This document shows, piece by piece, positions 32,910 through 48,071 of a DNA stretch of 64,000 bases. The notes under the pieces are model-generated. The model had not been told where the DNA came from, did not search any database, and worked only from the letters and a program-made list of their open reading frames with translations. Position 1 is the first letter of the stretch, and every line of letters begins with the position of its first letter. A program made the position numbers and the translations under genes. Source of the DNA: a phage; NCBI GenBank assembly GCA_024683775.1, contig GCA_024683775.1_4106.1; one strand, 5' to 3'.

Positions 32910-32959
32910 ACTTTATATCGAGGCGGGGAATGGTTCCCCGCTCAAACGAGGATTTAAAA

Positions 32960-33199: not shown

Positions 33200-33256
33200 T
33201 ATTCAGTACTGAGATAATGGCGGGTAATAGTTCCCGCCTTTACTGAGGGTTATCTA

Positions 33257-33517: not shown

Positions 33518-33603
33518 AAAAGTACTTGCAATTAGTTTTCAGTACTGTATAATGGTTTACATCAAAGGGAGAAATGGTTCTCCCTGGTAATGAGGAAAAT
33601 AAA

Positions 33604-33825
33604 ATGGCTAATATCACTACTCTTTCCCAACTGGAAGCACTGGTTAAATCTATGCGGGAACATGCCGACAAAATCGGCGTACAAGATCCAGCCGTTTGCT
33701 TCTGCGACGAATTGAATGATGATACCCTGGTAATAGCAGAAGTCCAGGACGTTTCTAACTATTCCTCGCGTTACACTGGCGGCGTAGCAAATAAAGGCGA
33801 CTTCTGTTTATACCTTACAAAATAA
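33604..33825 (+). CDS. hypothetical early protein (73 aa)
   Basis: Start at ATG 33604 after promoter and stem-loop GGGAGAAATGGTTCTCCC; SD GAGGAAAA. Confidence 0.65.
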   Translation: MANITTLSQLEALVKSMREHADKIGVQDPAVCFCDELNDDTLVIAEVQDVSNYSSRYTGGVANKGDFCLYLTK

Positions 33826-33828
33826 CAA

Positions 33829-33860
33829 CGCGGGGAGATAATAACTCCCCGTTACTTTTT
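33829..33860 (+). terminator. rho-independent terminator
   Basis: CGGGGAG-ATAATAA-CTCCCCG stem-loop followed by TTACTTTTT. Confidence 0.6.
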
Positions 33861-34068
33861 CAGTACTGAATCATTTAATAGACGGATCTCGGCACCCGGT
33901 GGGTTAGTGACTGTTTCGTCTTGATGTAGTAATTATGCCAGTACTGGATGCACTTGTCAACAACTATTTTTCAAATACTTTTTATTAAAATACTTGCAAT
34001 TAGTTTTTAAACGCGTATAATGTTTTGCATAGGGGGAGCGGTTCCCCTGGTAACTAAGGAATAATAAA

Positions 34069-34305
34069 ATGCTTGAACAAATCAAATCAACGTCTGCGAA
34101 TGTAACGGGAACGGTAGTACACTTTACTAGTGATGAATCGCGGGGTGTACCCTATTGTGCTGTACATGTAAACACTGAGGGTAACTACTGGTTTACGGTT
34201 TACGGATCATATTCATTTGGACGACCAGGGCATCAAAAAATTCTGGATAAAGTACAGCCAACGGGTAAAAATATCACTGCTGAAATGTTTTATAAAAAAT
34301 CATAA
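34069..34305 (+). CDS. hypothetical early protein (78 aa)
   Basis: Promoter + stem-loop GGGGGAGCGGTTCCCC upstream; SD AAGGAA. Confidence 0.65.
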   Translation: MLEQIKSTSANVTGTVVHFTSDESRGVPYCAVHVNTEGNYWFTVYGSYSFGRPGHQKILDKVQPTGKNITAEMFYKKS

Positions 34306-34389
34306 AGTACTTGATAATAGTTTTTAGTACTGTATAATATTTTACATCGCAAGGGGGAGCGGTTCCCCCTGGTAACTAAGGATAATCAA

Positions 34390-34689
34390 ATGAAAATTAC
34401 AATCATCGCCCTGGCTTTATCTGTTTCCTCTTTCGCTGTTAATGCGTCATTAGATGTAAGTAGTGAAAAATTCATTCAGTGCACTGTTGCAATGACCGAT
34501 GAAAGTACTGGCGAGATTGTATTAAAGGATCTGGAGATTCAGCCGGAAGCATTTAAAAACGGCCCGTTCCATGAAGAAGACGAAAACGGTAGCACGACAA
34601 TTTATTATGATGCCAGTACTAAACGCGGTTCGGTCACTGTAATGGATACCGAGAAAGTAACTCATACCGGCGTTATTAATTGCCGTTGA
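34390..34689 (+). CDS. small secreted/periplasmic protein (99 aa) with N-terminal signal peptide
   Basis: N-term MKITIIALALSVSSFAVNASL: basic residue, hydrophobic core, A-x-A-like cleavage site (VNA-S); promoter + stem-loop upstream. Confidence 0.65.
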   Translation: MKITIIALALSVSSFAVNASLDVSSEKFIQCTVAMTDESTGEIVLKDLEIQPEAFKNGPFHEEDENGSTTIYYDASTKRGSVTVMDTEKVTHTGVINCR

Positions 34690-34710
34690 TAGATACTACG
34701 GGGTAACATC

Positions 34711-34941
34711 ATGACTAAGCGAATTGTTTTACTTAACGAAAGCAGTACTACACAACTACTTAACGCCGTGCATTATGATATTGAAACGAGCGTTAATCTT
34801 ATCAGTACTGTCGTACTGTTGGACACTGGAAAGGTCGCCAATGATAAAGCGATTGCAGGTATACTAACGGATCTTGAGCCTGGTAGCAGTGCACCAATAA
34901 CGTTAAATGGTAAAGTGTTTAATATTTTACTCACTGATTAA
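34711..34941 (+). CDS. hypothetical early protein (76 aa)
   Basis: ORF with SD; followed by terminator. Confidence 0.6.
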   Translation: MTKRIVLLNESSTTQLLNAVHYDIETSVNLISTVVLLDTGKVANDKAIAGILTDLEPGSSAPITLNGKVFNILLTD

Positions 34942-34947
34942 GTACAT

Positions 34948-34976
34948 AGCCCACCTGGTGGGCTTTTTTGTTTTTG
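34948..34976 (+). terminator. rho-independent terminator
   Basis: AGCCCACC-TGGTGGGCT palindrome followed by TTTTTTGTTTTTG. Confidence 0.75.
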
Positions 34977-35174
34977 TAGTATCGTAGTACTGAGATACTT
35001 TGAAAATAGTTTTAAGAAAGTAGTTGACATTACCGCAGAAAAGCGTAGAATGTATTACATCAAGACGGGGAGCACTAAGTAGACCGCCAGTAAGTCGAAC
35101 GAAAAACTGGACACGTCGAGAAAACTTTGATACACTAATAAACGTAAACTAAACTTTAATTGAGGATTTATAAA

Positions 35175-35657
35175 ATGGCTAATGTAAAATCATTCATCAA
35201 AGCACTGGTAGCAAATGAAACTAACGTCGCGGCTGAGATCCTGGCTGAACTGGATAACGATACCATGAAAGCGGTACGCAATAATTTTAACATCGCGTAC
35301 AGTACTGCGAAAGAACTACAAGCAAATAAAGCGGCAGAAATTGAAGCGGCAAAGGCGGCCCGTGAAGCAGAACTACAAGCAACAATCGAAAGTATTCAGG
35401 CGGCAGTAGTTGGATTGGATCTGGAAGTAGTTACAGAGATGGCACAAAAAGCCCTGGCGGTTAAGTATGGGGAAGACAAGCCAGAAGTAAAAGCCAAAAA
35501 ATGGATTCAGGAACGCGTAGCGGTAGTACTGGACAACGGGGAAGAATATCTGATTCCGGTGCGTGGTAACTGCATTGCGGTAGTACTGGATGCGATTAAC
35601 TCCAGTGGTATGACTCGCGAGGAATGGATCAAAGCTCATCGCAAAGTTGAAGCATAA
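35175..35657 (+). CDS. hypothetical early protein (160 aa), alanine/glutamate-rich, predicted helical
   Basis: Start at ATG 35175 with SD GAGGA; followed by terminator. Confidence 0.7.
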   Translation: MANVKSFIKALVANETNVAAEILAELDNDTMKAVRNNFNIAYSTAKELQANKAAEIEAAKAAREAELQATIESIQAAVVGLDLEVVTEMAQKALAVKYGEDKPEVKAKKWIQERVAVVLDNGEEYLIPVRGNCIAVVLDAINSSGMTREEWIKAHRKVEA

Positions 35658-35678
35658 CAATTAAAGTACTGAATCACT

Positions 35679-35710
35679 AGCCCACTGTATAAGTGGGCTT
35701 TTTTGTGTTT
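35679..35710 (+). terminator. rho-independent terminator
   Basis: AGCCCAC-TGTATAA-GTGGGCT stem-loop followed by TTTTTTGTGTTT. Confidence 0.75.
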
Positions 35711-35941
35711 ATCGTTTACCATGCCACCAGCACCGCCTAGAAACGATTCTAACGCATTAAACTGATTATCTGATGCATTGCCCTAGCTGGTGGCGTTAAG
35801 GCTGTAAGAACGCGATTGAGAGCGTTTAAAGTATTTTGCAAAAAGTAATAAAAAGTACTTGCACGATTAAGAGATTAGCGTATAATGTTTTACATCGAGA
35901 GGGGGAAACGGTTCTCCTTCCAAATCAAAGGAATTAAAACA

Positions 35942-36169
35942 ATGGCTATCGTAATCACTCGCGTAACTGGTACTACTGGCAATTCTTCTACTGTTGCTGT
36001 AATTACTAATAAGAAAGGTGCGGAATTGCATTTTGCAATGGATAAATGGGCCGTTAATGAGTTCGGTCAGTGGGCAAGTGTAGCATACATTGAAACCTAT
36101 CAAGTGCCGTCGATTAGTTTAACTGATTTGGGCGTTGAGCGTATCCTTTGCCTGGATGAATTAAATTAA
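35942..36169 (+). CDS. hypothetical early protein (75 aa)
   Basis: Start at ATG 35942 after promoter + stem-loop; tracked extension MFYIERGK is promoter-derived. Confidence 0.65.
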   Translation: MAIVITRVTGTTGNSSTVAVITNKKGAELHFAMDKWAVNEFGQWASVAYIETYQVPSISLTDLGVERILCLDELN

Positions 36170-36255
36170 AAAAGTACTTGCAAAGTAAATCAGATAAAGT
36201 ATAATACATTACATCAAGGGGAGAAATGGTTCTCCCTGATAATGAGGAAACTAAT

Positions 36256-36399
36256 ATGAAAACTTGTCAATGTGGTAAAAAATCTATTACTGGTTTAAAG
36301 CGGGGCGTTGCACTTTGCCAGTACCATTATAATTTACAAGTATGGGGTAAAGAATGGGCCGACCAGGTGGAAGCAGCAAAGAAAGCAAAAAGTAAGTAA
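36256..36399 (+). CDS. small cysteine-containing protein (47 aa)
   Basis: ORF below track cutoff found by reading; preceded by promoter, stem-loop GGGAGAAATGGTTCTCCC and SD GAGGAAA. Confidence 0.5.
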   Translation: MKTCQCGKKSITGLKRGVALCQYHYNLQVWGKEWADQVEAAKKAKSK

Positions 36400-36417
36400 A
36401 ATATTATCACAGTACTA

Positions 36418-36446
36418 TTGACATAGTTTGATAGTACTGGCATAAT
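36418..36446 (+). promoter_or_regulatory. sigma70 consensus-like promoter
   Basis: TTGACA 36418-23, 17-bp spacer, CATAAT 36441-46. Confidence 0.65.
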
Positions 36447-36489
36447 AGATTTTATCAAGACGACACATATTAATTTAAGGAATACTAAA

Positions 36490-36813
36490 ATGGCTAAAAC
36501 TATCATTAACACCGTTTCCCTGGCTGCAATCCGTGCAATCAATGTTGACGGTAAACGTTGGACTGATTCATATGGCAATACTTATCATTCTTGTCATGTA
36601 AGCGTTGAACTGGATAACGGTTTGAATGATCTGGCGGTTGAATCATTTACTTATGGCTATGAAGATGCATATCAACAAACGGCGTTAGATCTCTTAAAGG
36701 AATCAGTAGACGGGCTTAATACTGATGACACCTCCCTTACTCGTTTGTGCAATGATCTTAATATCCCGTTGCATTGTACTGTACAGAATGTTAAACGCAA
36801 AAAAGATCTTTAA
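36490..36813 (+). CDS. hypothetical early protein (107 aa); paralog of 42978
   Basis: Shares RWTDS.GNTYHSC.VS...FTYGY and C-terminal VKRKKD with 42978 ORF; SD AAGGAA. Confidence 0.7.
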   Translation: MAKTIINTVSLAAIRAINVDGKRWTDSYGNTYHSCHVSVELDNGLNDLAVESFTYGYEDAYQQTALDLLKESVDGLNTDDTSLTRLCNDLNIPLHCTVQNVKRKKDL

Positions 36814-36893
36814 TTAGCTTTACTTTATGCAGATACTTTGATATAGTGTCTGCATAGGGGAAAGAAATTAAATTAACTTAAGAGGAACGTATA

Positions 36894-37163
36894 ATGAAAA
36901 ATATCAGTACTTTAATCGACGCAGGTACACATGTTCGGCGGTCTATGGTTGCAACCAGTACTACAAAACAAGTACCAAGCGGTTATCTTGTATTTGTGCA
37001 CGATGGTAAACTCCTGGAACGTTCAATCAATTTTGATGTTAAAAACAATTGCCGTTTTATTATCTTTAAGCGTGAGCAATATAAAATTGATTTACCAGCA
37101 AAGCCCATAAGCGGGGCGTACAACGTGCAATCATTGTTTGAACGTCAACCATACACCTATTAA
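36894..37163 (+). CDS. hypothetical early protein (89 aa)
   Basis: ORF with SD AGAGGAA. Confidence 0.6.
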   Translation: MKNISTLIDAGTHVRRSMVATSTTKQVPSGYLVFVHDGKLLERSINFDVKNNCRFIIFKREQYKIDLPAKPISGAYNVQSLFERQPYTY

Positions 37164-37214
37164 TCAAAACATCGTTAGCGGTCGATTTAGGCCGCTTATA
37201 TTGGGGATTATACC

Positions 37215-37487
37215 ATGAACGTTAATCAAGTACTGAATGAGATCGAAAGCATCATTAAACCGATGAAGCGTACTGATGCTATGTTAACACCGGAAGAATG
37301 CCGCCTTTATGAGCGTTACAGCGTCGAACAAGTCCAGGCGATGGCTATGGCTACCCCAGCCGTTAAACCGCCTGAGAATGCGTTACAGGACGTTACAGGG
37401 GATTATATCATCAATCCAGTACTAGGGAAGATGGCTGCAATCACCGAAGATCAACAAGACTACTTAAGCCAGTACTTAAAAGGTTAA
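37215..37487 (+). CDS. hypothetical early protein (90 aa)
   Basis: ORF with SD GGGGA. Confidence 0.6.
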   Translation: MNVNQVLNEIESIIKPMKRTDAMLTPEECRLYERYSVEQVQAMAMATPAVKPPENALQDVTGDYIINPVLGKMAAITEDQQDYLSQYLKG

Positions 37488-37492
37488 TTAAT

Positions 37493-37702
37493 ATGCTTAC
37501 TGTACAGGATAAGATCGACATCTTAAAGGTTAATATGTATGTGATTGATGCAGTACCTGGTAAAGTATTTGCATACGATGACAGTACTGTAAGCGATTTC
37601 TACTATAGCCAGGCCGTGGGGGATCTTTCTGTACAGTCGGTTATTGAAAACGTAGTTAATGCAGCGTATGAGCATTTACTTTCAAATAGTACTTGCAATT
37701 AG
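37493..37702 (+). CDS. hypothetical early protein (69 aa)
   Basis: ORF 5 nt after previous stop; 3' end overlaps next promoter. Confidence 0.55.
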   Translation: MLTVQDKIDILKVNMYVIDAVPGKVFAYDDSTVSDFYYSQAVGDLSVQSVIENVVNAAYEHLLSNSTCN

Positions 37703-37720
37703 TTTTTAAACGCGTATAAT
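37693..37720 (+). promoter_or_regulatory. early promoter (conserved type)
   Basis: TTGCAA 37693-98, spacer, TATAAT 37715-20, GTTTTACATG; stem-loop GGGGAGAAATGATTCTCCCC 37733-52. Confidence 0.65.
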
Positions 37721-37771
37721 GTTTTACATGAAGGGGAGAAATGATTCTCCCCACTAATTAAGGAATATGAA

Positions 37772-37918
37772 ATGAAAGCATCAAAAAAGAGTACTAACAA
37801 GAAAGCACGTTCAACCTTAGATGGGGTATTCCCTTTACGTTTCGTTGATGAAGTAGTTTCCTACCCGCCGGGCCTTACTCCTGAGATGGTAGAAAGTTTG
37901 CGTAAATCTAAAAAATAG
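37772..37918 (+). CDS. small basic protein (48 aa)
   Basis: ORF below track cutoff; promoter + stem-loop + SD AAGGAA upstream. Confidence 0.5.
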   Translation: MKASKKSTNKKARSTLDGVFPLRFVDEVVSYPPGLTPEMVESLRKSKK

Positions 37919-37999
37919 TACTTGCAATTAGTTTTTAGTACTGTATAATGTTTTACATGAAGGGGAGAAATGATTCTCCCCAATAACAGGAGAAACAAA

Positions 38000-38152
38000 A
38001 TGAAACAATACAACGCTCGGTTTGATGTTACTATCGGTAACGGCAAAGGTCAATTCTCTTTCAGTACTCGCAAAAGTTATACAGAAAACTTCCTGCGTAA
38101 TTGTGCACTGACCGCCGCTCAAATTAAACATTATTTTCAGGCTAAAAAATGA
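38000..38152 (+). CDS. small hypothetical protein (50 aa)
   Basis: Start at ATG 38000 after promoter + stem-loop + SD AGGAGAAA. Confidence 0.55.
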   Translation: MKQYNARFDVTIGNGKGQFSFSTRKSYTENFLRNCALTAAQIKHYFQAKK

Positions 38153-38238
38153 GATCATTAGCTTATTACAGTTCGGCCCTGGTCGGTGCATTGATCGCGG
38201 CGTTGTTAGTAACCTATCTATTCTTTATGGTGATTTAA
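38149..38238 (+). CDS. putative 29-aa hydrophobic micro-protein
   Basis: ATGA overlap with upstream stop; sequence MRSLAYYSSALVGALIAALLVTYLFFMVI is a single TM-like helix. Confidence 0.35.
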   Translation: MRSLAYYSSALVGALIAALLVTYLFFMVI

Positions 38239-38382
38239 ATGAATCCAACAGGTTTAAACTATAAAAGTTGTTCGGCGTTTACGAAAGCAAATAAAGCGAA
38301 TGCACGTAAAGCGAAAGTACAGGAATACATCAAGCAAGGCATGACGCGAAAGGCGGCGATTCTAAAAGCTAAAAATAAATGA
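38239..38382 (+). CDS. putative 47-aa basic micro-protein
   Basis: TAAATG overlap with upstream stop; lysine-rich. Confidence 0.3.
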   Translation: MNPTGLNYKSCSAFTKANKANARKAKVQEYIKQGMTRKAAILKAKNK

Positions 38383-38384
38383 AA

Positions 38385-38420
38385 AAAGTGGTTGACTCCG
38401 GTCAGCCATTTTGCTATTAT
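38385..38420 (+). terminator. conserved hairpin of the recurrent intergenic module (copy 1)
   Basis: Near-palindrome GTGGTTGACTCCGGTCAGCCAT followed by TTTGCTATTATAT. Confidence 0.5.
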
Positions 38421-38593
38421 ATATTCATTGAGAGATAGCTCACTAGCCCACAGGGTGCATAAGTGTATCTATTATATGAGTATTGAGTACTGAAAACTAT
38501 TTGATAAAAAGTACTTGCAAACTATCTCAATAAGCGTATAATGTTTTACATCGAAAGGGGAAACGGTTTCCCCTGGTAATAAGGAAACGAATC

Positions 38594-38935
38594 ATGACTA
38601 TCTCAATTGCTCAATCTAACTTTGAAAATGAAATCATCGCCCAGGCACTGCGTTTAAATGATGGTCGGGCCGAAATTAATTACGGTTTCAATTCAGGCGG
38701 TTGCGAAAACTATCAGTACTTTGTAACGGCTGATGGCGGTGTCCTGGGTATCAATACAGTTATTGTAAACATCCAAAAAATTAATTTCAATGATCCAGAC
38801 GATAGCCAGTTTTACATCACTGGCGTAGACGTGAACTATGAGGATGACTCACTAACTGATGATTACACTGGCGAGCGGTTAGAAAGTGCATACGGTGAAG
38901 ATGATTATCAGTCCGGTCCAGAAGATTTCGAATAA
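38594..38935 (+). CDS. hypothetical acidic early protein (113 aa)
   Basis: Promoter + stem-loop GGGGAAACGGTTTCCCC + SD AAGGAAA. Confidence 0.7.
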   Translation: MTISIAQSNFENEIIAQALRLNDGRAEINYGFNSGGCENYQYFVTADGGVLGINTVIVNIQKINFNDPDDSQFYITGVDVNYEDDSLTDDYTGERLESAYGEDDYQSGPEDFE

Positions 38936-38948
38936 TATAAAAAAATAG

Positions 38949-38977
38949 TTTGACAATAGATTATAGTACTGTATAAT
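38949..38977 (+). promoter_or_regulatory. sigma70 consensus promoter
   Basis: TTGACA 38949-54, 17-bp spacer, TATAAT 38972-77; followed by GGGGAGAATAGTTCTCCCC stem-loop. Confidence 0.7.
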
Positions 38978-39028
38978 GTTTTACATGAAGGGGAGAATAG
39001 TTCTCCCCACTAACAGAGAGAAAACAAA

Positions 39029-39241
39029 ATGGCTAATATCTGCACTGTACTGAAAAATGCAAAACAAGTTTTATTTTCTGATCACGATCATTTAAACAAG
39101 GATATTACTGGCGTTCGGAATATCAAAGATGTAAAAAGTGTTATGGGTATCTATTGCAATATGAAACGTGTCGGCACGTTCGGCGATAAAGTACTATACC
39201 AGGCAGGGGATTACAATTTTACACTGACTATCATTAACTAA
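39029..39241 (+). CDS. hypothetical early protein (70 aa)
   Basis: ORF with promoter, stem-loop and SD upstream. Confidence 0.65.
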   Translation: MANICTVLKNAKQVLFSDHDHLNKDITGVRNIKDVKSVMGIYCNMKRVGTFGDKVLYQAGDYNFTLTIIN

Positions 39242-39324
39242 AAATATTATCACAGTACTATTGACATAGTTTTATAGTACTGACATAATAACTTTTATCA
39301 ACTACACTACTAAGGAATTAAAAA

Positions 39325-39504
39325 ATGGCTATCATCGCAAAAACTGAAATCGTTGGTCTGGATTCTATCATCATGACGTTTGAAGATCAAAAAGGTATGT
39401 ATGTAGTTTCATATGGTGATTATGTTCGGGAGTATGAAACGGTAGACGAAGCCTTTGAAAGTTATATTCGCCAGGTGAATAAAGCATACGACGACTACCG
39501 CTAA
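39325..39504 (+). CDS. hypothetical early protein (59 aa)
   Basis: ORF below track cutoff; TTGACA-N17-CATAAT promoter at 39261-89; SD AAGGAA. Confidence 0.5.
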   Translation: MAIIAKTEIVGLDSIIMTFEDQKGMYVVSYGDYVREYETVDEAFESYIRQVNKAYDDYR

Positions 39505-39594
39505 AATATATTACCAGTACTATTGACATTGTTTGATAGTACTGTATAATAAGTTTTATAAACAGTAGTTAACTTAACCTAAGAGAGAAATAAA

Positions 39595-39738
39595 ATGATC
39601 GCACTGGATTCATTCATCGACGCAGTACTGGCAAAAACTGGCGAGGATCTGACCGCAGAACAATACGCGATGATCGAGCAATGTCAGCAAAACGGTAAAT
39701 CGGTGAAAGATACTGTTAAGATTATCCGCAAGATGTAA
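39595..39738 (+). CDS. hypothetical early protein (47 aa)
   Basis: ORF below track cutoff; TTGACA..TATAAT promoter at 39523-50; SD AGAGAGAAA. Confidence 0.45.
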   Translation: MIALDSFIDAVLAKTGEDLTAEQYAMIEQCQQNGKSVKDTVKIIRKM

Positions 39739-39837
39739 TATTATAGCCCACTGGTTAACGCTGGTGGGCTATAATCATTTACCCTATACAATGCCAGTAC
39801 TCAACCGTTTATCTCGTTAGAATGCGTTACAGGACGT

Positions 39838-40041
39838 TTGACAATGATTAGCATGAAATCAGTACAAAAACAAATAGAAACATTATCAAAAATTAAACGT
39901 AAACAGTACTCGTTAGAATATACAATCAATGGTAACTATCATCTAATGAAAGAGAATAATTTCATTGTCATTGATGAATCATTGCAAGTTATTAGTATAG
40001 TACTGAAAGCATTAATCAATGACAGAAAAAAATTAAAATAA
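39838..40041 (+). CDS. hypothetical early protein (67 aa)
   Basis: ORF; weak SD. Confidence 0.45.
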   Translation: MTMISMKSVQKQIETLSKIKRKQYSLEYTINGNYHLMKENNFIVIDESLQVISIVLKALINDRKKLK

Positions 40042-40369
40042 TCTATTGACAATATCCTCCAGTACTGGCATAATACTTACATCAAGACGAGAACGTCACT
40101 AACCCATAGGGTGCACAAATGTAACTATATAATATCGATCAATAAATGATCAAAAAGTACTGGATCAATTTAGCATAAGGCGTATAATTCTGATCAATTC
40201 TTGATCAAAGGCAATATACGCAGTTGAATTTATATAGACAGTACAAAGGCGTTACTATCCGTGGTAATGCTGGTGGATATGTAGTATCATATGGTTTGAA
40301 TAAGATAAACACTAGTAGTATTATTGTAGCATTACAGTACTATAGTATTTTTATAATGAGGTTAAAATA

Positions 40370-40627
40370 ATGGCAGTAGGATACGCGAAAGACGGGGCCG
40401 AACAAGACGAGATTCACGCAGTGATTCAGGCAGCCGTTAACCACGCTAGAAAGCAAATTAACGCACAAAGAGAATCACTGGTACATTGCCTCGACTGCGG
40501 CGATAAAATCCCTGAGAATCGACGCCAGGCCGTTATAGGGTGCATGTATTGTATTACTTGCCAGGAGGATCATGATAGTACTTTTAAAAGAGATCCGCGT
40601 AATTGTTGGCATAGATCTATGAGATAA
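40370..40627 (+). CDS. TraR/DksA-like C4 zinc-finger protein
   Basis: C-x2-C-x17-C-x2-C (CLDCGDKIPENRRQAVIGCMYCITC) with the conserved IP.[AE]RR.A motif typical of TraR/DksA zinc fingers; SD GAGG. Confidence 0.6.
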   Translation: MAVGYAKDGAEQDEIHAVIQAAVNHARKQINAQRESLVHCLDCGDKIPENRRQAVIGCMYCITCQEDHDSTFKRDPRNCWHRSMR

Positions 40628-40690
40628 AAAGTATTGACAGTACTGAAAGATAGTGTATAATGTTTTATATCTTAACTGAGGATAGTAATC

Positions 40691-41047
40691 ATGGGAATAC
40701 AACATATCACGCGTACTACTGACAATGGCGAGATCACTGGTTATCAGGTACAGGGCAAAGTAGCACAATTGCAGTACTGGTTTGTTAAACGTGGAATCAT
40801 TGCACCGGATCTTGATTATGACCGTGTAGCGTTTATTGATTCTCTTTATGTTGATCCTGATAGTCGGGGCAATGGTGAAGGTAACGAATTAATGAATGCC
40901 TTTATTGATGCCGCCGATGATTCAGATTGTATCATCTTAGAATGCGATACGGGAGAAGATAACGCCTTTAATCTTAAAGAATGGTACGAAGGTTTCGGAT
41001 TCGAGGTACTGATCGATAGTGAATATCCTATCATGATTTTATCATAG
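40691..41047 (+). CDS. hypothetical protein with weak GNAT-acetyltransferase-like motif
   Basis: VDPDSRGNGEGNELM resembles the GNAT motif A ([QR]-x-x-G-x-[GA]); TTGACA..TATAAT promoter at 40633-60. Confidence 0.4.
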   Translation: MGIQHITRTTDNGEITGYQVQGKVAQLQYWFVKRGIIAPDLDYDRVAFIDSLYVDPDSRGNGEGNELMNAFIDAADDSDCIILECDTGEDNAFNLKEWYEGFGFEVLIDSEYPIMILS

Positions 41048-41125
41048 TACTTGCATTTAGTTTTCAGTACTGTTATAGTACTTGCATCAAGGGGAAACAT
41101 CTTCCCCTACTAAGAGGAAATAAAA

Positions 41126-41314
41126 ATGGAAAACTTATCAAGTATTTTAGTACAAGATGATTTCGGTAATCCTGGAAGTGCTATCATTGTTCGGGGCAAT
41201 AAAGCAACGTTTGTTATTGCTGGTGGACCCGTACAGCGTAGCATTAAAAATAATGCTGTTACCATTAATAATGTACGCTATCGCTTAGATAAAGAATTAA
41301 TTCATAAACTGTAA
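41126..41314 (+). CDS. hypothetical early protein (62 aa)
   Basis: Promoter-like box + stem-loop GGGGAAACATCTTCCCC + SD GAGGAAA. Confidence 0.6.
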   Translation: MENLSSILVQDDFGNPGSAIIVRGNKATFVIAGGPVQRSIKNNAVTINNVRYRLDKELIHKL

Positions 41315-41399
41315 AAAAGTACTGGACAATAGATTATAGTACTGTATAATAGTTTACATGAAGGGGAGAAATGATTCTCCCCACTAAGAGGAAAGAAAA

Positions 41400-41612
41400 A
41401 TGCAAGGTCAACTAATCGTTCGTAAATGGTCTGATACTAACGAAAAACCGTGGGATGTACAATACATCGCCCCAAATGGTGAATCCAGATATCAACCAGG
41501 TGTAACGCATAGTACTGAGCAATTCGCCGCCGCTCATCGCGAACGTCTGTTACAATCAATGCAGCACGGTTCCGGTGAAAAATTCATTCAGGATCATTGG
41601 CTGAAAGATTAA
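41400..41612 (+). CDS. hypothetical early protein (70 aa)
   Basis: Promoter + stem-loop GGGGAGAAATGATTCTCCCC + SD. Confidence 0.65.
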   Translation: MQGQLIVRKWSDTNEKPWDVQYIAPNGESRYQPGVTHSTEQFAAAHRERLLQSMQHGSGEKFIQDHWLKD

Positions 41613-41698
41613 AAAGTACTTGCACAGTACTGAATAAAGTGTATAATGTTTTATATCGGAAGGGGAATAGTTCCCCTCCTAACAAAGAGGAAAGTATA

Positions 41699-41872
41699 AT
41701 GGTCCAGGTAGAATTAACAGTACTGAAAGATCTGTTTTATCGGATTGGTACTACTGGCGAATATCCGAAGGGTGATAATGCAAAACTTTACGTATCACTC
41801 GACTTATGGCAACGCGAACAATTAGCAACGGCCTGGCGTAAAGGCAAAGCAGATAGCGAGGTGAAAGCATGA
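41699..41872 (+). CDS. hypothetical early protein (57 aa)
   Basis: Start at ATG 41699 after promoter + stem-loop GGGGAATAGTTCCCC + SD AGAGGAAA. Confidence 0.55.
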   Translation: MVQVELTVLKDLFYRIGTTGEYPKGDNAKLYVSLDLWQREQLATAWRKGKADSEVKA

Positions 41873-42018
41873 AAGAATTCTTATTTGAAGTAGTGTTTCA
41901 AGGTGTCGGTAATAACCAACTGATTCGATCAAGTGGTTATAATGTTAACCAGGCATGGAATAACATTAAACAAATGTACCCGAACGCTATCACATATCGC
42001 AACCCGAAAGAAGTTTAA
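41869..42018 (+). CDS. hypothetical early protein (49 aa)
   Basis: ATGA overlap with previous stop; ORF below track cutoff. Confidence 0.4.
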   Translation: MKEFLFEVVFQGVGNNQLIRSSGYNVNQAWNNIKQMYPNAITYRNPKEV

Positions 42019-42030
42019 AAATAATTGAAA

Positions 42031-42056
42031 AAGGGATTGACTCCGGTCAGTCCCTT
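42031..42056 (+). terminator. conserved hairpin of the recurrent intergenic module (copy 2)
   Basis: AAGGGATTGACTCCGGTCAGTCCCTT near-palindrome followed by TGCTATTATATA. Confidence 0.5.
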
Positions 42057-42343
42057 TGCTATTATATACGCATAGAAACAAATTAGCCCACCGGGTGCAT
42101 AAATGTATCTATTGTTTGCTGGTGGCTAGTACTATCAAGTACTGAAAACTATTTTTAAAAAAGTACTTGCAAAGTATCACGATAAGCGTATAATGTTTTA
42201 CATCAGGACGGGGAACGAAATAAGTAACCCCGTTAAGTAGTCCAGGAGTAAGACATACGAAAAACTCCCCTGATAAAATAGTTTGACAATAGAAAGTAAA
42301 CGAGTATAATACTTACATCAACCACTGATAAGGAAACATTAAA

Positions 42344-42619
42344 ATGCGGACTTTACTTACAGCTAACGAAATCGAGCAAGTACTGACTACTAATCTGGAA
42401 CAATGGAAACGTGAAGCAGATATCCAGGCGGTTCAATGCCTTAACGATAAGTTAACGCCAGATGACTTAAGCACGATTGTTGATCCACAATTTTATGAAG
42501 ATATTCACGACACGTCTTTAAGCGTCGAGGATGTACTTGATAAGCACTACATTGATACTGATTTACATGTTTACGGTCGTAAAAACTTTATCACTATTCA
42601 CGACATTTACAATACTTAA
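42344..42619 (+). CDS. hypothetical early protein (91 aa)
   Basis: Two promoter-like boxes upstream (42165-42200, 42280-42315); SD AAGGAAA. Confidence 0.65.
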   Translation: MRTLLTANEIEQVLTTNLEQWKREADIQAVQCLNDKLTPDDLSTIVDPQFYEDIHDTSLSVEDVLDKHYIDTDLHVYGRKNFITIHDIYNT

Positions 42620-42707
42620 GTATTGACAAAGTATCTTAGTACTGTATAATAGTTTACATCAAGTGAGGGGAAACGGTTCCCCTCCTAACAAAGAGAGAGA
42701 AATTAAA

Positions 42708-42890
42708 ATGGCTAAGTGCACTATCTGTAAGAAAGAAATCGTATTAGTTCCAAGTGCCCGTGAACGTGCCGCTCGGTTCGGTGGCAAAGCGTCAGACTAT
42801 ACAAAAATGTTTACTGCCCATGCAGCTTGTCAAGTAGCAAAACGTTCACAAGAAAGCGTAGAATTAATGCGTAAACTTTCCAAAAAATAA
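42708..42890 (+). CDS. hypothetical early protein (60 aa), cysteine pair CTIC + CQ
   Basis: Start at ATG 42708; promoter + stem-loop GAGGGGAAACGGTTCCCCTC upstream. Confidence 0.6.
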   Translation: MAKCTICKKEIVLVPSARERAARFGGKASDYTKMFTAHAACQVAKRSQESVELMRKLSKK

Positions 42891-42977
42891 GTATTGACAA
42901 AGTATCTTAGTACTGTATAATAGTTTACATCAAGCGAGGGGAATGGTTCCCCTCCTAACAAAGAGAGAGAAATAAAA

Positions 42978-43301
42978 ATGGCTATGATCCTTACCCAGAA
43001 AGTAGAACTGAAAATTGTAACCTCCTTTGACATTAAAGTTAATCGGTGGACTGATAGCCACGGCAATACTTACCACTCCTGCTACGTGTCCGCATTGATT
43101 GGTGATCGCTGGGAAGACCTGGGACACGAAACCTTTACATACGGTTACGGCACACAAGGTGAGTACACGGGTTTAGAAATCATTAAGGAAACTGTAATAG
43201 GTTTCAACCCGAAAGAGAAAGTACTACACAGAATTGAGAAAGAGATCAACAAAGAAATTACAGTTCGCTACTACGATGTAAAACGTAAGAAAGACATGTA
43301 A
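42978..43301 (+). CDS. hypothetical early protein (107 aa); paralog of 36490
   Basis: Promoter + stem-loop + SD; similarity to 36490 ORF. Confidence 0.7.
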   Translation: MAMILTQKVELKIVTSFDIKVNRWTDSHGNTYHSCYVSALIGDRWEDLGHETFTYGYGTQGEYTGLEIIKETVIGFNPKEKVLHRIEKEINKEITVRYYDVKRKKDM

Positions 43302-43400
43302 TAGAATCCATTTAAAGTACTATTTGACATTGCCCAGATAGTACTTTATAATAGACTCTAACTTGTAGTACTAATTAACTTAACTAATAGGATGTACACC

Positions 43401-43796
43401 ATGATTACTAAATTCTTCGCTACCCGTGAACAAGCTCGCATCGTTGCCCGTGAGGAAGGTGAAACATTTAAAGACATGGGTAAAGATTCTCCTACTGGTA
43501 AACGCTGGGCGGTACAGTTCAAAGAGATCTCTGATATTGTGAATTCACCTGAGCCTGTACTTACAGCAGCAGAACTAAAGCAAGCTCAAGAACTGGCTGA
43601 AGTACTGAACGCTCAAGATGACTTCTTGAAAGGTTCTGATATTGAAGTTACAGTTAACGCAAATGCATGGACTCACGCGGATCACCTGGCAAACCTTAAG
43701 CGTCCAAGTGAACTGATTCGCAACCAGAAAGAGATCCGACACGACCGTAAGGGTAATCGTGTAACAGTATACAGTAAACGCCGCCAGGTTATCTAA
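43401..43796 (+). CDS. hypothetical early protein (131 aa); paralog of 31245
   Basis: Start chosen at ATG 43401 (AGGA SD 9 nt upstream); similarity to 31245 ORF. Confidence 0.65.
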   Translation: MITKFFATREQARIVAREEGETFKDMGKDSPTGKRWAVQFKEISDIVNSPEPVLTAAELKQAQELAEVLNAQDDFLKGSDIEVTVNANAWTHADHLANLKRPSELIRNQKEIRHDRKGNRVTVYSKRRQVI

Positions 43797-43818
43797 TAAC
43801 TTGCAGTACTAACAACAC

Positions 43819-43843
43819 GGCGGGATCAGTTCCCGCCTTTTTT
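43819..43843 (+). terminator. rho-independent terminator
   Basis: GGCGGGA-TCAGT-TCCCGCC followed by TTTTTTA. Confidence 0.7.
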
Positions 43844-43857
43844 ATAGGACAAACAAA

Positions 43858-44112
43858 ATGATTAAGGTTCAACTATATAAAGATAACATCTTACGGGTAC
43901 ACTATAAAGCACCTCAGAGAATCATCACAAAGGCCGTACAGCTTGCTAATGAGTTTATTAATGGTAACCTATTACCTAGGAAGTTAAGCAACGGGAAACT
44001 GCGTGTAATCGACGTGGACACTAACAACAGGATAGTAATCGAGAACACAGGAAAGATAAACCTTTATGAGCATCAACAATACAATAAGAAAATAAAACTA
44101 ATATCACGTTGA
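43858..44112 (+). CDS. hypothetical protein (84 aa)
   Basis: ORF with SD AGGA. Confidence 0.55.
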   Translation: MIKVQLYKDNILRVHYKAPQRIITKAVQLANEFINGNLLPRKLSNGKLRVIDVDTNNRIVIENTGKINLYEHQQYNKKIKLISR

Positions 44113-44165
44113 CAGTACTCAATTGTTTTAGTACTATGTACACATACCAACACGGGAGAAACAAA

Positions 44166-44384
44166 ATGAAATTATCTAAAATCGAAAAGAAAACTATTGA
44201 TGAAGCAGTTAAGCACGGTTATACCTTTCGTAATGATTCACATTTTACCAATTTTCAACAAGGGTATCGTACTATTAAAAAACTAATTGACAAAGGTTTA
44301 TTAGTTGAAGTCAATAACGGTAACGGTATCGAGTATCAACCAACACAAGACGCATTTTATTTTAAGAAATATAATATTATCTAA
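44166..44384 (+). CDS. hypothetical protein (72 aa)
   Basis: Start at ATG 44166 with SD GGGAGAAA. Confidence 0.55.
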   Translation: MKLSKIEKKTIDEAVKHGYTFRNDSHFTNFQQGYRTIKKLIDKGLLVEVNNGNGIEYQPTQDAFYFKKYNII

Positions 44385-44442
44385 TTGACAGTACTCAATT
44401 GTTTTAGTATTATGTACACATACCAACACGGGGGGAAACAAA

Positions 44443-44685
44443 ATGATTACTTTAGAAAAACGTATCAAAGAAACTACATCGCTGGTGGAACTGTTAACAG
44501 TACTCAAATGTAAAACAACACCATTCAGCACGCCGGACTTTATTAATATGGTTGATGTTAATGGTCGCTATCGTATCACGGTCGAACAAGGAGCGGCGAA
44601 AGTATTCAGTACTAAAAACACTAAGGAAGTGATCCACGCCGTTAATGTTAAAAAAGTAGTTGCCATTGATAGTAAAGTACTGTAA
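44443..44685 (+). CDS. hypothetical protein (80 aa)
   Basis: SD GGGGGGAAA; upstream region duplicates that of 44166 (TTGACAGTACTCAATTGTTTTAGTA.TATGTACACATACCAACACGGG). Confidence 0.55.
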   Translation: MITLEKRIKETTSLVELLTVLKCKTTPFSTPDFINMVDVNGRYRITVEQGAAKVFSTKNTKEVIHAVNVKKVVAIDSKVL

Positions 44686-44716
44686 TATAGTTTCATTAAC
44701 TCAAGGAGAACATGCA

Positions 44717-45301
44717 ATGCGTAAATATACTAAATTCATCCGTACACTGTCAGAAATGGAAACCAACAAAGAGATCCTTTCAGCTTGTCGGTTAGCTGGC
44801 CTGGAGATCATCGGTGCTGGTTCTTCCCGTATAGTATTCGCTTTAAATGATCGGTTAGTGATTAAGGTCGCGAATTGTGATGCGGGTGTCGAACAAAATG
44901 AAACTGAATGTAAGGTATGGAATTTTTTAGACTATGACCGCCCTCAGTTGAAACAGTACTTTGCAAAGGTGCATATGCATTTATGCGATCCTGATAATAT
45001 GTTTATCGTTATGGATCGGTTGAGTACTGCAAGCAAAGGCAGTGTGAAGCACGTAAACGCGTGCAATGAATTAAAGTACAATATTAAACGTAATGCAATC
45101 GAACGCCAGCACCGCTTTGCTGATGCACTACAACACGTTGATGATACATTATCAACACTAACGATAAGAGATATCAGAAAACAGAATATCGGCCAGGATC
45201 GTAATGGACTTATTAAAGTACTTGATTACGGTTTAACCAGCAATATCTGGAATCAGTACTATAAAAAGCGTGATGTGGCAGCAAGTAAGGTAACACGATA
45301 A
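44717..45301 (+). CDS. putative protein kinase-like protein (194 aa)
   Basis: Motif order matches a kinase fold: GAGSSRIV (Gly-rich loop), VIKVA (VAIK-like Lys), IRDIRKQN (catalytic loop D..N), LDYG (DFG-like); SD AAGGAGAA. Confidence 0.5.
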   Translation: MRKYTKFIRTLSEMETNKEILSACRLAGLEIIGAGSSRIVFALNDRLVIKVANCDAGVEQNETECKVWNFLDYDRPQLKQYFAKVHMHLCDPDNMFIVMDRLSTASKGSVKHVNACNELKYNIKRNAIERQHRFADALQHVDDTLSTLTIRDIRKQNIGQDRNGLIKVLDYGLTSNIWNQYYKKRDVAASKVTR

Positions 45302-45312
45302 AAAAGATTAAA

Positions 45313-45340
45313 AAAGGGATTGACTCCGGTCAGTCCCTTT
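45313..45340 (+). terminator. conserved hairpin of the recurrent intergenic module (copy 3)
   Basis: AAGGGATTGACTCCGGTCAGTCCCTTT then GCTATTATATAT. Confidence 0.5.
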
Positions 45341-45525
45341 GCTATTATATATCCATTGAGAGATAACTCACTGACCCATAGGGTGCGGAAGTGTATCTAT
45401 TATATAAGTATTCAGTACTGAAAACTATTTGATAAAAAGTACTTGCAAACTATCTCAATGAGCGTATAATGTTTTATATCGAGAGGGGGAAATGGTTCTC
45501 CCTGGTACTAAAAGGAATCAAGACG

Positions 45526-45747
45526 ATGACTACTATGACCTGCGTTCACGCTTCAAATCTTCTGAATGATGCAGCATTTAAAGCAGGTGAAGAATATCAA
45601 TGCTATCGGGATGAAAATAAAAAAGTTTTCGTCGTTGATGCTAACGGTTTCCATATTGAATTGCAATCCGGCTTCACTGGTTTAAATGGTAAATCAGTAT
45701 GGGGCGTTAATGATGATAATGGTCTTTATCACTTTATCCGTAATTAA
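45526..45747 (+). CDS. hypothetical early protein (73 aa)
   Basis: Start at ATG 45526 after promoter + stem-loop GGGGGAAATGGTTCTCCC + SD AAAGGAA. Confidence 0.6.
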   Translation: MTTMTCVHASNLLNDAAFKAGEEYQCYRDENKKVFVVDANGFHIELQSGFTGLNGKSVWGVNDDNGLYHFIRN

Positions 45748-45751
45748 GTAT

Positions 45752-45779
45752 TTGACAAAGTATATCAGTACTGTATAAT
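45752..45779 (+). promoter_or_regulatory. sigma70 consensus promoter
   Basis: TTGACA 45752-57, 16-bp spacer, TATAAT 45774-79; stem-loop GGGGAGAATAGTTCTCCCC 45792-45810. Confidence 0.7.
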
Positions 45780-45831
45780 AGTTTACATCAAGGGGAGAAT
45801 AGTTCTCCCCGATACTAAAAGGAATAAAATC

Positions 45832-46239
45832 ATGACTACTACCAATCAAGCTCGGAACATCACCAACGATAAAAATCATGCTGCAATGGTCGCTGGATAC
45901 ATTGAAGCTATGCAATTCAGTACTGTATACAATGAGAACGGCGATTACCTGGAAGATTATGAATTATCAGAGCAAGCCCATCAAGCGGCAGTGATTGCAT
46001 GTTCACGTTTCCTTGCTGTACATGGTGAAGATATGGAAACAGTACAAAAACACCATAATCCTGATTATACTTATAGTCATGCAGGTCATGATCTCTTTCT
46101 TACTCGCGAAGGTCACGGCACTGGTTTTTGGGATCGTGGTTTAGGTCACTATGGCGATGTATTCACGAAGTACTGCGAAGAAATCAACGTTTGCGATCCC
46201 TATGTAGGCGATGATAACTTAATCTATATGGGCGAATAA
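45832..46239 (+). CDS. hypothetical early protein (135 aa), His/Gly-rich C-terminal half
   Basis: ORF with promoter, stem-loop, SD AAAGGAA. Confidence 0.7.
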   Translation: MTTTNQARNITNDKNHAAMVAGYIEAMQFSTVYNENGDYLEDYELSEQAHQAAVIACSRFLAVHGEDMETVQKHHNPDYTYSHAGHDLFLTREGHGTGFWDRGLGHYGDVFTKYCEEINVCDPYVGDDNLIYMGE

Positions 46240-46328
46240 AAGTATTTGACAAAGTATATCAGTACTGTATAATAGTTTACATCAAGGGGAGAATAGTTCT
46301 CCCCACACCAATAAAAGGAAACAAAATT

Positions 46329-46601
46329 ATGTCCAGCTACTCCGCTACTATGATCATTAAAGATATGAACGGTAATCCTACTTCTGCTGGTGGATCATTT
46401 GGAAATATTAACTTAGATGGGCGGTTATCCATGCAATCAGCCATCGATGCAGCGAAAGAAGTTTTTAAGAATGAATGTACTGTTAGTAAGCTGGATTATA
46501 TGGGTTTCGCTATCGAGAAAACTACTCGTTTTGTGAACTACAAAAATCCACTGATGATTGATACTAACCTGAAAGCTAACGAAGTGGGGTACTTATTATG
46601 A
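46329..46601 (+). CDS. hypothetical early protein (90 aa)
   Basis: Upstream region (46243-46300) is a near-copy of the 45752 promoter/stem-loop; SD AAAGGAA. Confidence 0.7.
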   Translation: MSSYSATMIIKDMNGNPTSAGGSFGNINLDGRLSMQSAIDAAKEVFKNECTVSKLDYMGFAIEKTTRFVNYKNPLMIDTNLKANEVGYLL

Positions 46602-46789
46602 CAGTAGAAGAAGTAAAAAAAGTACTGGCAGTACTACGATATCATAATCATTGCAAGGTGAAGAATGATCCTGATTATCTTGATTCATCCCTGGAGGAAG
46701 ACACCTTGAACGCTATAAGCCATATGCAGACATTAGCAAAGCGTATGACTGAAAAGAACATGCCGGACTATATCGGAAATAAAATTTAA
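46598..46789 (+). CDS. hypothetical early protein (63 aa)
   Basis: ATGA overlap with previous gene. Confidence 0.55.
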   Translation: MTVEEVKKVLAVLRYHNHCKVKNDPDYLDSSLEEDTLNAISHMQTLAKRMTEKNMPDYIGNKI

Positions 46790-46876
46790 AAAGTACTTGC
46801 ATTGTAGTTAGATTAACGTATAATGTTTTATATCGAGAGGGGGAAATGGTTTCCCCTCAAGTCCAGGAGATACACC

Positions 46877-47140
46877 ATGAACACTATCGAAATCACTATC
46901 AATGCACACGTATACGACAACGTAGTACTGCAAACTACTATGACCGCCAATGATACCAGTACTTTGCGGAATACTGTTATTAGTGCCGTATGTGCCGCTA
47001 TCGGTGATGTCGCCCTGGAAAATGCAAAACACGTAAACGATGGTTTCACTATGTGCAAACGTGATAACGCAAAACATATCATCGTGGAAGGTTACGGCGG
47101 TGTAGAATTTAATGTTTATATGAAAAAAGTACTTGCATAA
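46877..47140 (+). CDS. hypothetical early protein (87 aa)
   Basis: Start at ATG 46877 after promoter + stem-loop GGGGGAAATGGTTTCCCC + SD AGGAGA. Confidence 0.65.
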   Translation: MNTIEITINAHVYDNVVLQTTMTANDTSTLRNTVISAVCAAIGDVALENAKHVNDGFTMCKRDNAKHIIVEGYGGVEFNVYMKKVLA

Positions 47141-47207
47141 TAACTAAAACAAAGTATAATGTTTTGCATAGGGGGAGATATCCTCCCCCACTAAAAGGAG
47201 TAATAAA

Positions 47208-47432
47208 ATGGCTAACTTTGATGAACTGATGCGGGAAGTAGCTAACCTGGCAGAAGAGAAGAAATCATTCGATTCTATCTATAACACCGCTCACCGTGAT
47301 TCAGTACTGGCATGTAACCAGGATCAAAAAGATGAACTAATCGCCACCTATCATGAAGCATGGAAGTACTACCGACAATGGGAGAAAGAAGAAAGTGAGT
47401 CTACCATTGACGGCCTCAATAATCTAATCTAA
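47208..47432 (+). CDS. hypothetical early protein (74 aa)
   Basis: Promoter + stem-loop GGGGGAGATATCCTCCCCC + SD AAGGAG. Confidence 0.65.
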   Translation: MANFDELMREVANLAEEKKSFDSIYNTAHRDSVLACNQDQKDELIATYHEAWKYYRQWEKEESESTIDGLNNLI

Positions 47433-47508
47433 AAGTTTTATTTCAGTACTATTGACATAGCTTGATAGTACTGATGTAATAACTTTACTAACTACAAGGG
47501 GAAACATA

Positions 47509-47766: not shown

Positions 47767-47856
47767 AAACTATTTGACAGTACTAACCAGTAATGTATAA
47801 TGTTTTACATAGAGCGGGGGAATAGTTCTCCCGCCAATAGTTTGGAGTAAAACATT

Positions 47857-48057: not shown

Positions 48058-48071
48058 CAAAAAAGAATAAA

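Follow-up and report, generated by a model that had tools for sequence, protein, structure and literature searches.

A conserved C4 zinc-finger gene of the DksA/TraR family

The present analysis concerns a small gene at positions 40370 to 40627 on the + strand of a 64,000-nucleotide (nt) stretch of phage DNA (contig GCA_024683775.1_4106.1 of assembly GCA_024683775.1), a stretch to which we refer as the window. The gene is a real and conserved member of the DksA/TraR zinc-finger family and encodes the 85-residue protein MAVGYAKDGAEQDEIHAVIQAAVNHARKQINAQRESLVHCLDCGDKIPENRRQAVIGCMYCITCQEDHDSTFKRDPRNCWHRSMR. The following features belong to the gene itself:

40370..40627, + strand: coding sequence of an 85-amino-acid (aa) C4 zinc-finger protein of the DksA/TraR family (YbiI type), stop codon included (list of open reading frames (ORFs); Pfam, PHROG and NCBIfam matches)
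40358..40361, + strand: Shine-Dalgarno sequence GAGG, 8 nt before the ATG (read from the sequence; invariant in six related phages)
40487..40561, + strand: C4 zinc-binding motif C40-x2-C43-x17-C61-x2-C64 including IPExRR (I47, P48, E49, R51, R52) (invariant columns; hhalign with TraR)

A preliminary description of the locus had recognised a C-x2-C-x17-C-x2-C finger with an IP..RR.A signature, had assigned the protein to the TraR/DksA family on these grounds, and had named beforehand a missing profile match and a lack of conservation of the cysteines as the points on which the assignment could fall. In an alignment of 47 homologues, obtained from a search of 5.8 billion clustered proteins, C40, C43, C61 and C64 are all invariant, as are I47, P48, R51 and R52 of the signature and, outside of it, M1, A2, G4, A17, A26, R27, G57, Q65, D69 and R77. 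The family membership is likewise borne out by the match to the Pfam family PF01258 (zf-dskA_traR), which reaches 36.9 bits and thus exceeds the curated gathering score of 24.9 (expectation value E = 3.7e-9), and by the match to PHROG 54, 'DksA-like zinc-finger protein' (E = 8e-19). The motif string itself, CLDCGDKIPENRRQAVIGCMYCITC, is encoded by nt 40487-40561, and a stop-free CxxC-x15-20-CxxC pattern occurs twice in a six-frame scan of the window, compared with a mean of 0.2 in 50 mononucleotide shuffles. Among the 150 best representatives of 50% clusters, 117 have the spacing of 17 residues between the two CxxC pairs. A fifth cysteine, C58, lies between the knuckles and is not conserved, the position being C in 57% and V in 43% of the phage homologues; a second metal site formed by C58, C79 and H81 was therefore rejected. 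The N-terminal MAVG aligns with the MA(G/S)G at the N-terminus of bacterial homologues, and the start codon is hence right.

Escherichia phage fEgEco12 shares 98.9% identity with the 3 kb around the gene, and many further jumbo coliphages of Asteriusvirus (121Q/PBECO4 group, 350-385 kb) share 90-99%; the window comes from a jumbo coliphage of this 121Q group. Phages Ecwhy_1 and fEgEco12 each encode a 100% identical protein, which is annotated as 'C-4 type zinc finger protein' in the former and as 'DksA-like zinc-finger protein' in the latter. As such, the finding re-discovers an existing annotation: the gene belongs to a known family, is already annotated in public records, and its novelty is low. 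Homologues in Asteriusvirus show 88-96% identity, and a large set from T4-like phages of approximately 170 kb and from metagenomes shows 62-72% identity, with carriers that include Citrobacter phage Moon, Escherichia phage vB_EcoM_RZ and the Yersinia phages MHG19 and fHe-Yen9-01. Bacterial homologues are 88 aa long and 42-51% identical. The DksA/TraR-type zinc-finger family is very common in phages and proteobacteria: 954 records of a phage collection were matched in a tblastn search (with an identity of at least 60% in about 150 cases), and 2526 of 1.84 billion representatives of 50% clusters were matched by a profile at E values up to 0.001.

Among six Asteriusvirus orthologues, the ratio of nonsynonymous to synonymous substitution rates (dN/dS) is 0.08-0.25, and the gene is thus under purifying selection. 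One could still ask whether the ORF arose by chance or represents a decaying gene without function, for which nothing speaks but the small size and the presence of a truncated, chimeric remnant in the T4-like phage ST0. Against this stand the full-length homologues with 62-96% identity in many jumbo and T4-like phages, the low dN/dS, the invariant functional columns and the good Shine-Dalgarno sequence, and we consider the idea effectively refuted by conservation, with a probability that is close to nil.

The ORF in question of Escherichia phage ST0 (Mosigvirus; L015:653-820) is 55 aa long. Of the two CxxC knuckles it retains the second alone, together with the invariant tail (…VIYCVGCQSMHDEIFKREPRNCWHRSMR), and its N-terminus is acidic and unrelated. 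A partial match to phrog_25948 is due to this ORF. It is either a remnant of recombination or a sign that the tail module can work alone.

Relationship to YbiI, TraR, Orf73 and DksA

With regard to the subfamily, the preliminary description had judged the N-terminal part to be short and more similar to TraR than to full-length DksA. The first part of this statement holds, since 39 residues precede the first cysteine compared with 36 in TraR and 113 in DksA, whereas the second part has to be amended: according to the sequence comparisons, the nearest relative is the chromosomal YbiI (E. coli b0803) and not the TraR of conjugative plasmids. The best NCBIfam model is NF008243 (PRK11019, YbiI type), which matches residues 1-73 with 78.6 bits and hence stays below its equivalog cut-off of 96 bits. 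The TraR models remain below their cut-offs as well (TIGR02419, 49.1 vs 59.7 bits; NF010268, 31.6 vs 108 bits), and the DksA model NF033459 reaches 14.2 bits compared with a cut-off of 105. By sequence, the closest solved structure is E. coli YbiI (PDB 2KGO; E = 2.4e-11, residues 1-69), while TraR as present in RNA polymerase complexes (6N57, 5W1S) is matched with E = 5e-6 over residues 18-68 only.

For the pairwise comparisons by hhalign, the TraR sequence was checked against thousands of annotated traR genes, the Orf73 sequence was read from phage lambda, and YbiI and DksA were taken from E. coli K-12. The alignment with TraR covers residues 21-71 of the phage protein (TraR 18-68; 98.6% probability) and that with lambda Orf73 residues 29-73 (Orf73 24-68; 98.1% probability), whereas the alignment with E. 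coli DksA is weak and limited to the zinc finger (residues 33-69 vs 107-143; 86% probability). The alignment with TraR, put forward earlier as a way to examine the proposal, thus holds for residues 21-71 and fails for the first 20 residues, which carry no canonical DxxDxA.

Three further features within the protein are relevant for this comparison:

40370..40414, + strand: N-terminal motif MAVGYAKDGAEQDEI, residues 1-15, a family-specific tip in place of the DxxDxA of TraR (conservation in the 47 sequences)
40385..40453, + strand: residues 6-28, predicted to form a long N-terminal helix that corresponds to helix 2-27 of TraR (AlphaFold2; TraR boundaries from PMC6970531)
40583..40624, + strand: phage-clade-specific C-terminal tail FKRDPRNCWHRSMR, residues 72-85, predicted to be disordered (predicted local distance difference test (pLDDT) about 51) (35 phage homologues; AlphaFold2)

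The likeness to YbiI extends from residue 1 to residue 69 at 42% identity and comprises the N-terminal MA-G-[FWY]-A-x-D-x-A, the C4 spacing, IPxxRR, Q65 and D69, as well as the general layout of a helix, a zinc ribbon, a short helix, a linker and a conserved basic C-terminal tail ending in R. The YbiI-type motif MAxG[FWY]AxDxA stands at the very start of the protein (MAVGYAKDGA here, MASGWANDDA in K-12 YbiI). Within the N-terminal motif, the 47 sequences are invariant at M1, A2 and G4 and reach a conservation of 90% or more at A6, K7, D8, G9, A10 and Q12. The form MAxG[FYW]AKDGAxQ, which is nearly invariant and common to phage and bacterial members, occurs in 108 of the best 150 representatives of 50% clusters.

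The phage proteins differ from YbiI in position 11 (E in phages, V in bacteria), in a linker that is four residues shorter, and in the tail, which reads FKRxPRNCWHRSMR instead of [YFI]NRRGSKDSQLR. The latter motif is absent from the protein studied here, which carries RDPRNCWHRSMR in its place, so that only R77 and the terminal R are common to both. Within the 35 phage homologues, which are 62-96% identical to the query, R74 and R77-M84 of the tail are invariant and F72, K73, P76 and R85 are 91-97% conserved. In bacterial YbiI-type proteins, the [YFI]NRRGSKDSQLR follows a variable linker and is near-invariant across diverse bacteria. The two groups also differ in genetic setting, as YbiI is encoded by a chromosomal, RpoS-dependent host gene and the phage protein by what is, from its context, an early gene of a virulent phage.

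With F-plasmid TraR (6N57, 5W1S) and its phage homologues, the protein shares the small size (85 aa in total vs about 73 in TraR), a single N-terminal helix of equal length (predicted 6-28 vs 2-27), the identical spacing of the C4 ribbon and the IPE-RR together with its contact residues for the rim helices and Si3. Like TraR it is encoded by a mobile element and, from its context, would be expressed as the element takes over the cell, and it shares an extra cysteine (GCxxCxxC) with lambda Orf73. Unlike TraR and Orf73, however, it has what appears to be a shorter C-terminal helix and an added tail, and, unlike the characterised phage TraR homologues, which come from temperate phages, the Asteriusvirus group was isolated as lytic phages. 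DksA is likewise a member of the PF01258 zinc-finger family and is found, if weakly, by hhalign and also by Foldseek. It is, however, a protein of 151 residues with a two-helix coiled coil, residues that bind guanosine tetraphosphate (ppGpp) and a DxxDxA tip, none of which is present in the 85-aa phage protein.

Two attempts to trace the DxxDxA in the phage protein were rejected. Equating the N-terminus with the DxxDxA of TraR, Orf73 or DksA finds no footing, since hhalign leaves residues 1-20 unaligned and the gaps placed by MAFFT are arbitrary. A register in which D8-x-A10 corresponds to D6-x-A8 of TraR requires a shift by one residue relative to the helix anchor.

Probable early expression and a possible action on host RNA polymerase

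The preliminary description had placed the gene among early genes, and the context supports this view. The gene lies within a large block of the window:

28675..49555, + strand: equivalent of the 20,993-base-pair direct terminal repeat of fEgEco12, with small + strand genes and repeated consensus promoters; contains the zinc-finger gene (BLASTN onto both fEgEco12 ends)

As position 28675 corresponds to base 1 of fEgEco12 and position 49555 to its last base in BLASTN, the block is the equivalent of the direct terminal repeat, which in fEgEco12 was confirmed by restriction digests (PMC13070987); in the assembly of the window, the repeat is collapsed. The gene is annotated inside the 'Direct Terminal Repeats' of phage vB_Ec-M-J and occurs twice in fEgEco12 (g030 and g644), and because of its location in the terminal repeat each packaged genome would carry two copies. 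The two copies in the GenBank record of fEgEco12 bear different names, namely 'DksA-like zinc-finger protein' and 'pro-lysogenic factor' (L009:11479-11736, L010:40220-40477).

Predicted sigma-70 promoters with at least 11 of 12 matches, all of them on the + strand, number 21 between 29040 and 48221, whereas the region 1-29 kb has no such promoter and the region 48.3-64 kb has five. Most of the repeat promoters share the module AAAGTAyTa-TTGACA-N16-(AGTACTG)TATAAT-agTTTACATCAAG, behind which the transcribed leader carries a GC hairpin (for example GGGGAGAATAGTTCTCCCC), and their discriminators are AT-rich (about 23% GC by our own count). Early expression of the gene, which is likely because it resides in a terminal repeat with 21 near-consensus sigma-70 promoters on the + strand, is thus well supported by context, and the layout of the promoter-rich block resembles the pre-early terminal repeat of phage T5. 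For Rak2-like relatives, early promoters of the RpoD type and a late sigma factor that resembles T4 gp55 have been described (PMC5259590), from which it follows that these phages would depend on the host core polymerase. The T4-like homologues also sit in early regions, either in tk-mobD-nrdC or beside mrh and the gene of an RNA polymerase ADP-ribosylase.

The question arises what such a protein would do. From our point of view, the most plausible answer, which we hold to be probable although with clear reservations, is that it represents a TraR-like, ppGpp-independent binder of the secondary channel of host RNA polymerase that is made immediately after infection and diverts transcription to the phage. 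This proposal draws on what has been established for relatives. For five TraR homologues from phages, both binding to RNA polymerase and complementation of a dksA deletion have been reported; lambda Orf73 raises the phage yield 3- to 4-fold, and the other homologues inhibit ribosomal RNA (rRNA) and ribosomal-protein promoters in vitro (PMC9239242). In TraR, the N-terminal helix (residues 2-27) carries a DxxDxA tip that reaches the active site (PMC9239242, PMC6970531), where the N-terminus adjoins the Mg2+ (PMC6970531). R48 of the globular zinc domain binds the beta-prime rim helices, E46, R49 and K50 contact beta-prime Si3, and the C-terminal helix (58-73) binds the beta lobe-Si1 (PMC9239242, PMC6970531). 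For YbiI itself, it was reported as data not shown that high levels rescue the auxotrophy of a dksA deletion (PMC2613031).

According to this proposal, the zinc-finger gene, second in a unit of two genes, would be transcribed by host RNA polymerase right after infection, and the product would bind the same polymerase as TraR and lambda Orf73 do. Contacts of its globular zinc domain with the beta-prime rim helices and Si3 would be made by E49, R51 and R52, which in the alignment correspond to TraR E46, R48 and R49 and are at least 92% conserved (E49) or invariant (R51, R52). The long N-terminal helix would pass through the secondary channel and bring the conserved N-terminus (MAVG-Y-AKDGA) close to the active site; the conservation of M1, A2, G4 and D8-G-A10 fits an insertion into a confined site. 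Without the need for ppGpp, open complexes could then be destabilised at short-lived host promoters such as those for rRNA and ribosomal proteins, and the polymerase thus freed would serve the phage consensus promoters with their AT-rich discriminators. The invariant basic tail probably adds a contact that replaces most of the C-terminal helix seen in TraR, with the beta lobe-Si1 as a partner at which we can only guess. For this subfamily, RNA polymerase binding and host reprogramming are our inference.

The AlphaFold2 model of the protein shows a helix from residue 6 to 28, two zinc knuckles, a short helix from 62 to 68 and a poorly defined tail, and a Foldseek comparison with the PDB gives YbiI, TraR, Chlamydia DksA and E. 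coli DksA as the top matches.

Several points weigh against the TraR-like action proposed here. The DxxDxA, which is critical for the activity of TraR and lambda Orf73 (PMC9239242), is absent in its canonical form, as the N-terminus reads M-A-V-G-Y-A-K-D-G-A-E-Q-D-E (D8-G-A-E11-Q-D13); in the ungapped register, in which residue i of the query corresponds to residue i-3 of TraR, the TraR residues D3, D6 and A8 become A6, G9 and E11; and with none of TraR, Orf73 and DksA does hhalign align the first 20 residues. At the other end, the sequence aligns through TraR residue 68, but the modelled C-terminal helix spans only residues 62-68 compared with 58-73 in TraR, and the tail is unrelated. The model itself is of moderate confidence (pLDDT 70.9). 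Some zinc-finger homologues of intermediate length that lack the DxxDxA do not behave like DksA, and the functional evidence for YbiI consists of the one 'data not shown' remark, the authors of which thought a role in iron metabolism likelier (PMC2613031). Lastly, our search of the literature for expression data or a transcriptome of the Asteriusvirus group found none, and returned only promoter predictions for the related phage CBB.

Some of these points would also fit a function that does not involve RNA polymerase, in which the zinc ribbon serves as a scaffold while the N-terminus and the basic tail engage something else, such as nucleic acid, the ribosome or a protein of phage or host. The missing canonical DxxDxA and the apparently short C-terminal helix can be read in this way, as can the conserved tails of phage (PRNCWHRSMR) and bacterial proteins (NRRGSKDSQLR), which have no counterpart in TraR. 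In addition, not all C4 zinc-finger homologues work like DksA, and ybiI of the host is described as an RpoS-dependent gene the function of which is not known and which lies adjacent to the iron-uptake genes ybiX-fiu. Our search of the literature on YbiI function and on DksA-like proteins of virulent phages found only the remark on YbiI from 2009 and the RpoS dependence of ybiI. However, the residues with which TraR engages the rim helices and Si3 are conserved, helix length and overall fold of the predicted structure match TraR, and in T4-like phages genes for modifiers of host transcription are found in the vicinity. Such a function therefore seems rather unlikely to us.

The combination of a conserved docking surface (E49, R51, R52) with the lack of the canonical tip motif could also indicate that the protein acts as a plug or competitor, which would occupy the secondary channel through its globular contacts without remodelling initiation and would shut out DksA/ppGpp, GreA and GreB, so that neither a stringent response nor a rescue of backtracked complexes could take place. 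With the Gre-family protein Rnk, a channel binder is already known that acts by competition alone. This idea is, however, difficult to reconcile with the N-terminus being the most conserved part across the whole YbiI family, which argues for a specific role of the tip, and with the report that overexpressed YbiI rescues, rather than mimics, the loss of DksA (PMC2613031). We regard such pure competition as distinctly improbable.

Beyond the TraR-like action that we favour, one could speculate that YbiI-type proteins, including the clade of Asteriusvirus and many T4-like phages, represent a mechanistically distinct class of effectors of polymerase, or of another target, in which an N-terminal glycine-rich peptide (MAVG-F/Y-AKDGA) stands in for the DxxDxA and a basic tail (PRNCWHRSMR) for the Si1-binding helix, and which virulent phages would deploy from their terminal repeats within the first minutes after infection. 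Such proteins might act by blocking the secondary channel against DksA/ppGpp and Gre factors or by contacting a second target via the tail. At present, this suggestion appears doubtful to us.

As to its significance, the discovery value is small, since an identical protein is already labelled and since TraR homologues of temperate phages have already been demonstrated to reprogram host transcription. A modest value lies in the fact that the YbiI-type branch of virulent jumbo and T4-like phages does without the motif deemed essential for TraR activity while having its own conserved N-terminus and tail, and in the location of the gene in the terminal repeat with two copies per packaged genome. 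If the TraR-like action proves true, lytic phages would use a ppGpp-independent mimic of the stringent response that frees RNA polymerase from rRNA operons, and the phage protein might also reveal the role of the host YbiI.

Probable transcription unit and neighbouring sequences

The surroundings of the gene comprise the following features:

40046..40074, + strand: closest sigma-70-type promoter ahead of the gene, TTGACA-17-CATAAT, extended by TG (11 of 12 positions matched in the promoter scan; six phages keep the hexamers)
40081..40223, + strand: leader of approximately 145 nt with five GATCAA repeats, the first 100 nt or so nearly invariant among relatives (alignment; RNA fold z = -1.9)
40224..40370, + strand: 48-aa ORF with a TTG start, matching phrog_38664 with E = 3.7e-31 (ORF list; annotated in fEgEco12 and 121Q)
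40634-40661, + strand: next consensus promoter, a perfect one, ahead of a GNAT gene (promoter scan)

From the arrangement of these elements, the promoter at 40046..40074 probably drives a bicistronic unit of the 48-aa ORF and the zinc-finger gene, and no terminator-like site was predicted between the promoter and the latter. The TAA of the 48-aa ORF and the ATG of the zinc-finger gene overlap by one base (TAATG), and the two genes are hence probably translationally coupled within one transcription unit. Two further candidates for control elements near the start of the zinc-finger gene were rejected. An internal sigma-70 promoter could not be assigned, since the TATAAT at 40352-40357 lacks a -35 element at a spacing of 16-18 nt and is separated by 22 nt from the TTGTAG at 40324, and an RNA structure that masks the ribosome-binding site was dismissed because the fold of 40296-40395 is no better than that of shuffles (z = +0.78). 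Known RNA families or tRNAs were not found in the window.

The protein encoded by the 48-aa ORF is conserved through diverged DNA in phages SHEFM2K and E9.1, as read from the alignment, although the records of these phages annotate a different, shorter ORF. Its YVVSYG core is shared with a 59-aa ORF at 39325-39504, which may on this basis be a paralogue. Six phages show no DNA change at all over the last 65 nt or so of the 48-aa ORF (40313-40370), and nothing obvious accounts for this.

Within the leader, the five GATCAA copies lie within about 70 nt (40137-40208), and the final one forms the palindrome TTGATCAA. One copy occupies the -35 position of a decayed promoter module (AAAAAGTACTG-GATCAA-N15-TATAAT). 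The segment is the densest GATC cluster of the window, and four to five of the GATC sites are kept in related phages. The cluster could possibly provide Dam or SeqA sites, an array for protein binding, or RNA hairpins. Over the whole window GATC is scarce, with 139 occurrences compared with about 208 expected from base composition, and it is concentrated in the terminal-repeat block, where 12-23 sites per 4 kb are found compared with 2-9 elsewhere.

Directly downstream of the zinc-finger gene, positions 40691-41047 encode a GNAT acetyltransferase of 118 aa (PF00583, E = 4e-9). The adjacency is kept in Asteriusvirus but not in T4-like phages, and a functional link between the two genes was rejected since the synteny is not kept in the latter.

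Between 962 and 23470, about 18 paralogous genes, each encoding roughly 360-450 aa, stand in tandem on the minus strand of the window. Five of the six genes sampled match RCC1-like beta-propeller repeats (Pfam PF25390/PF00415), and relatives annotate them as 'chromosome condensation regulator'. As positions 4006-13837 have no long match to fEgEco12, the array represents a variable region that adjoins the terminal repeat.

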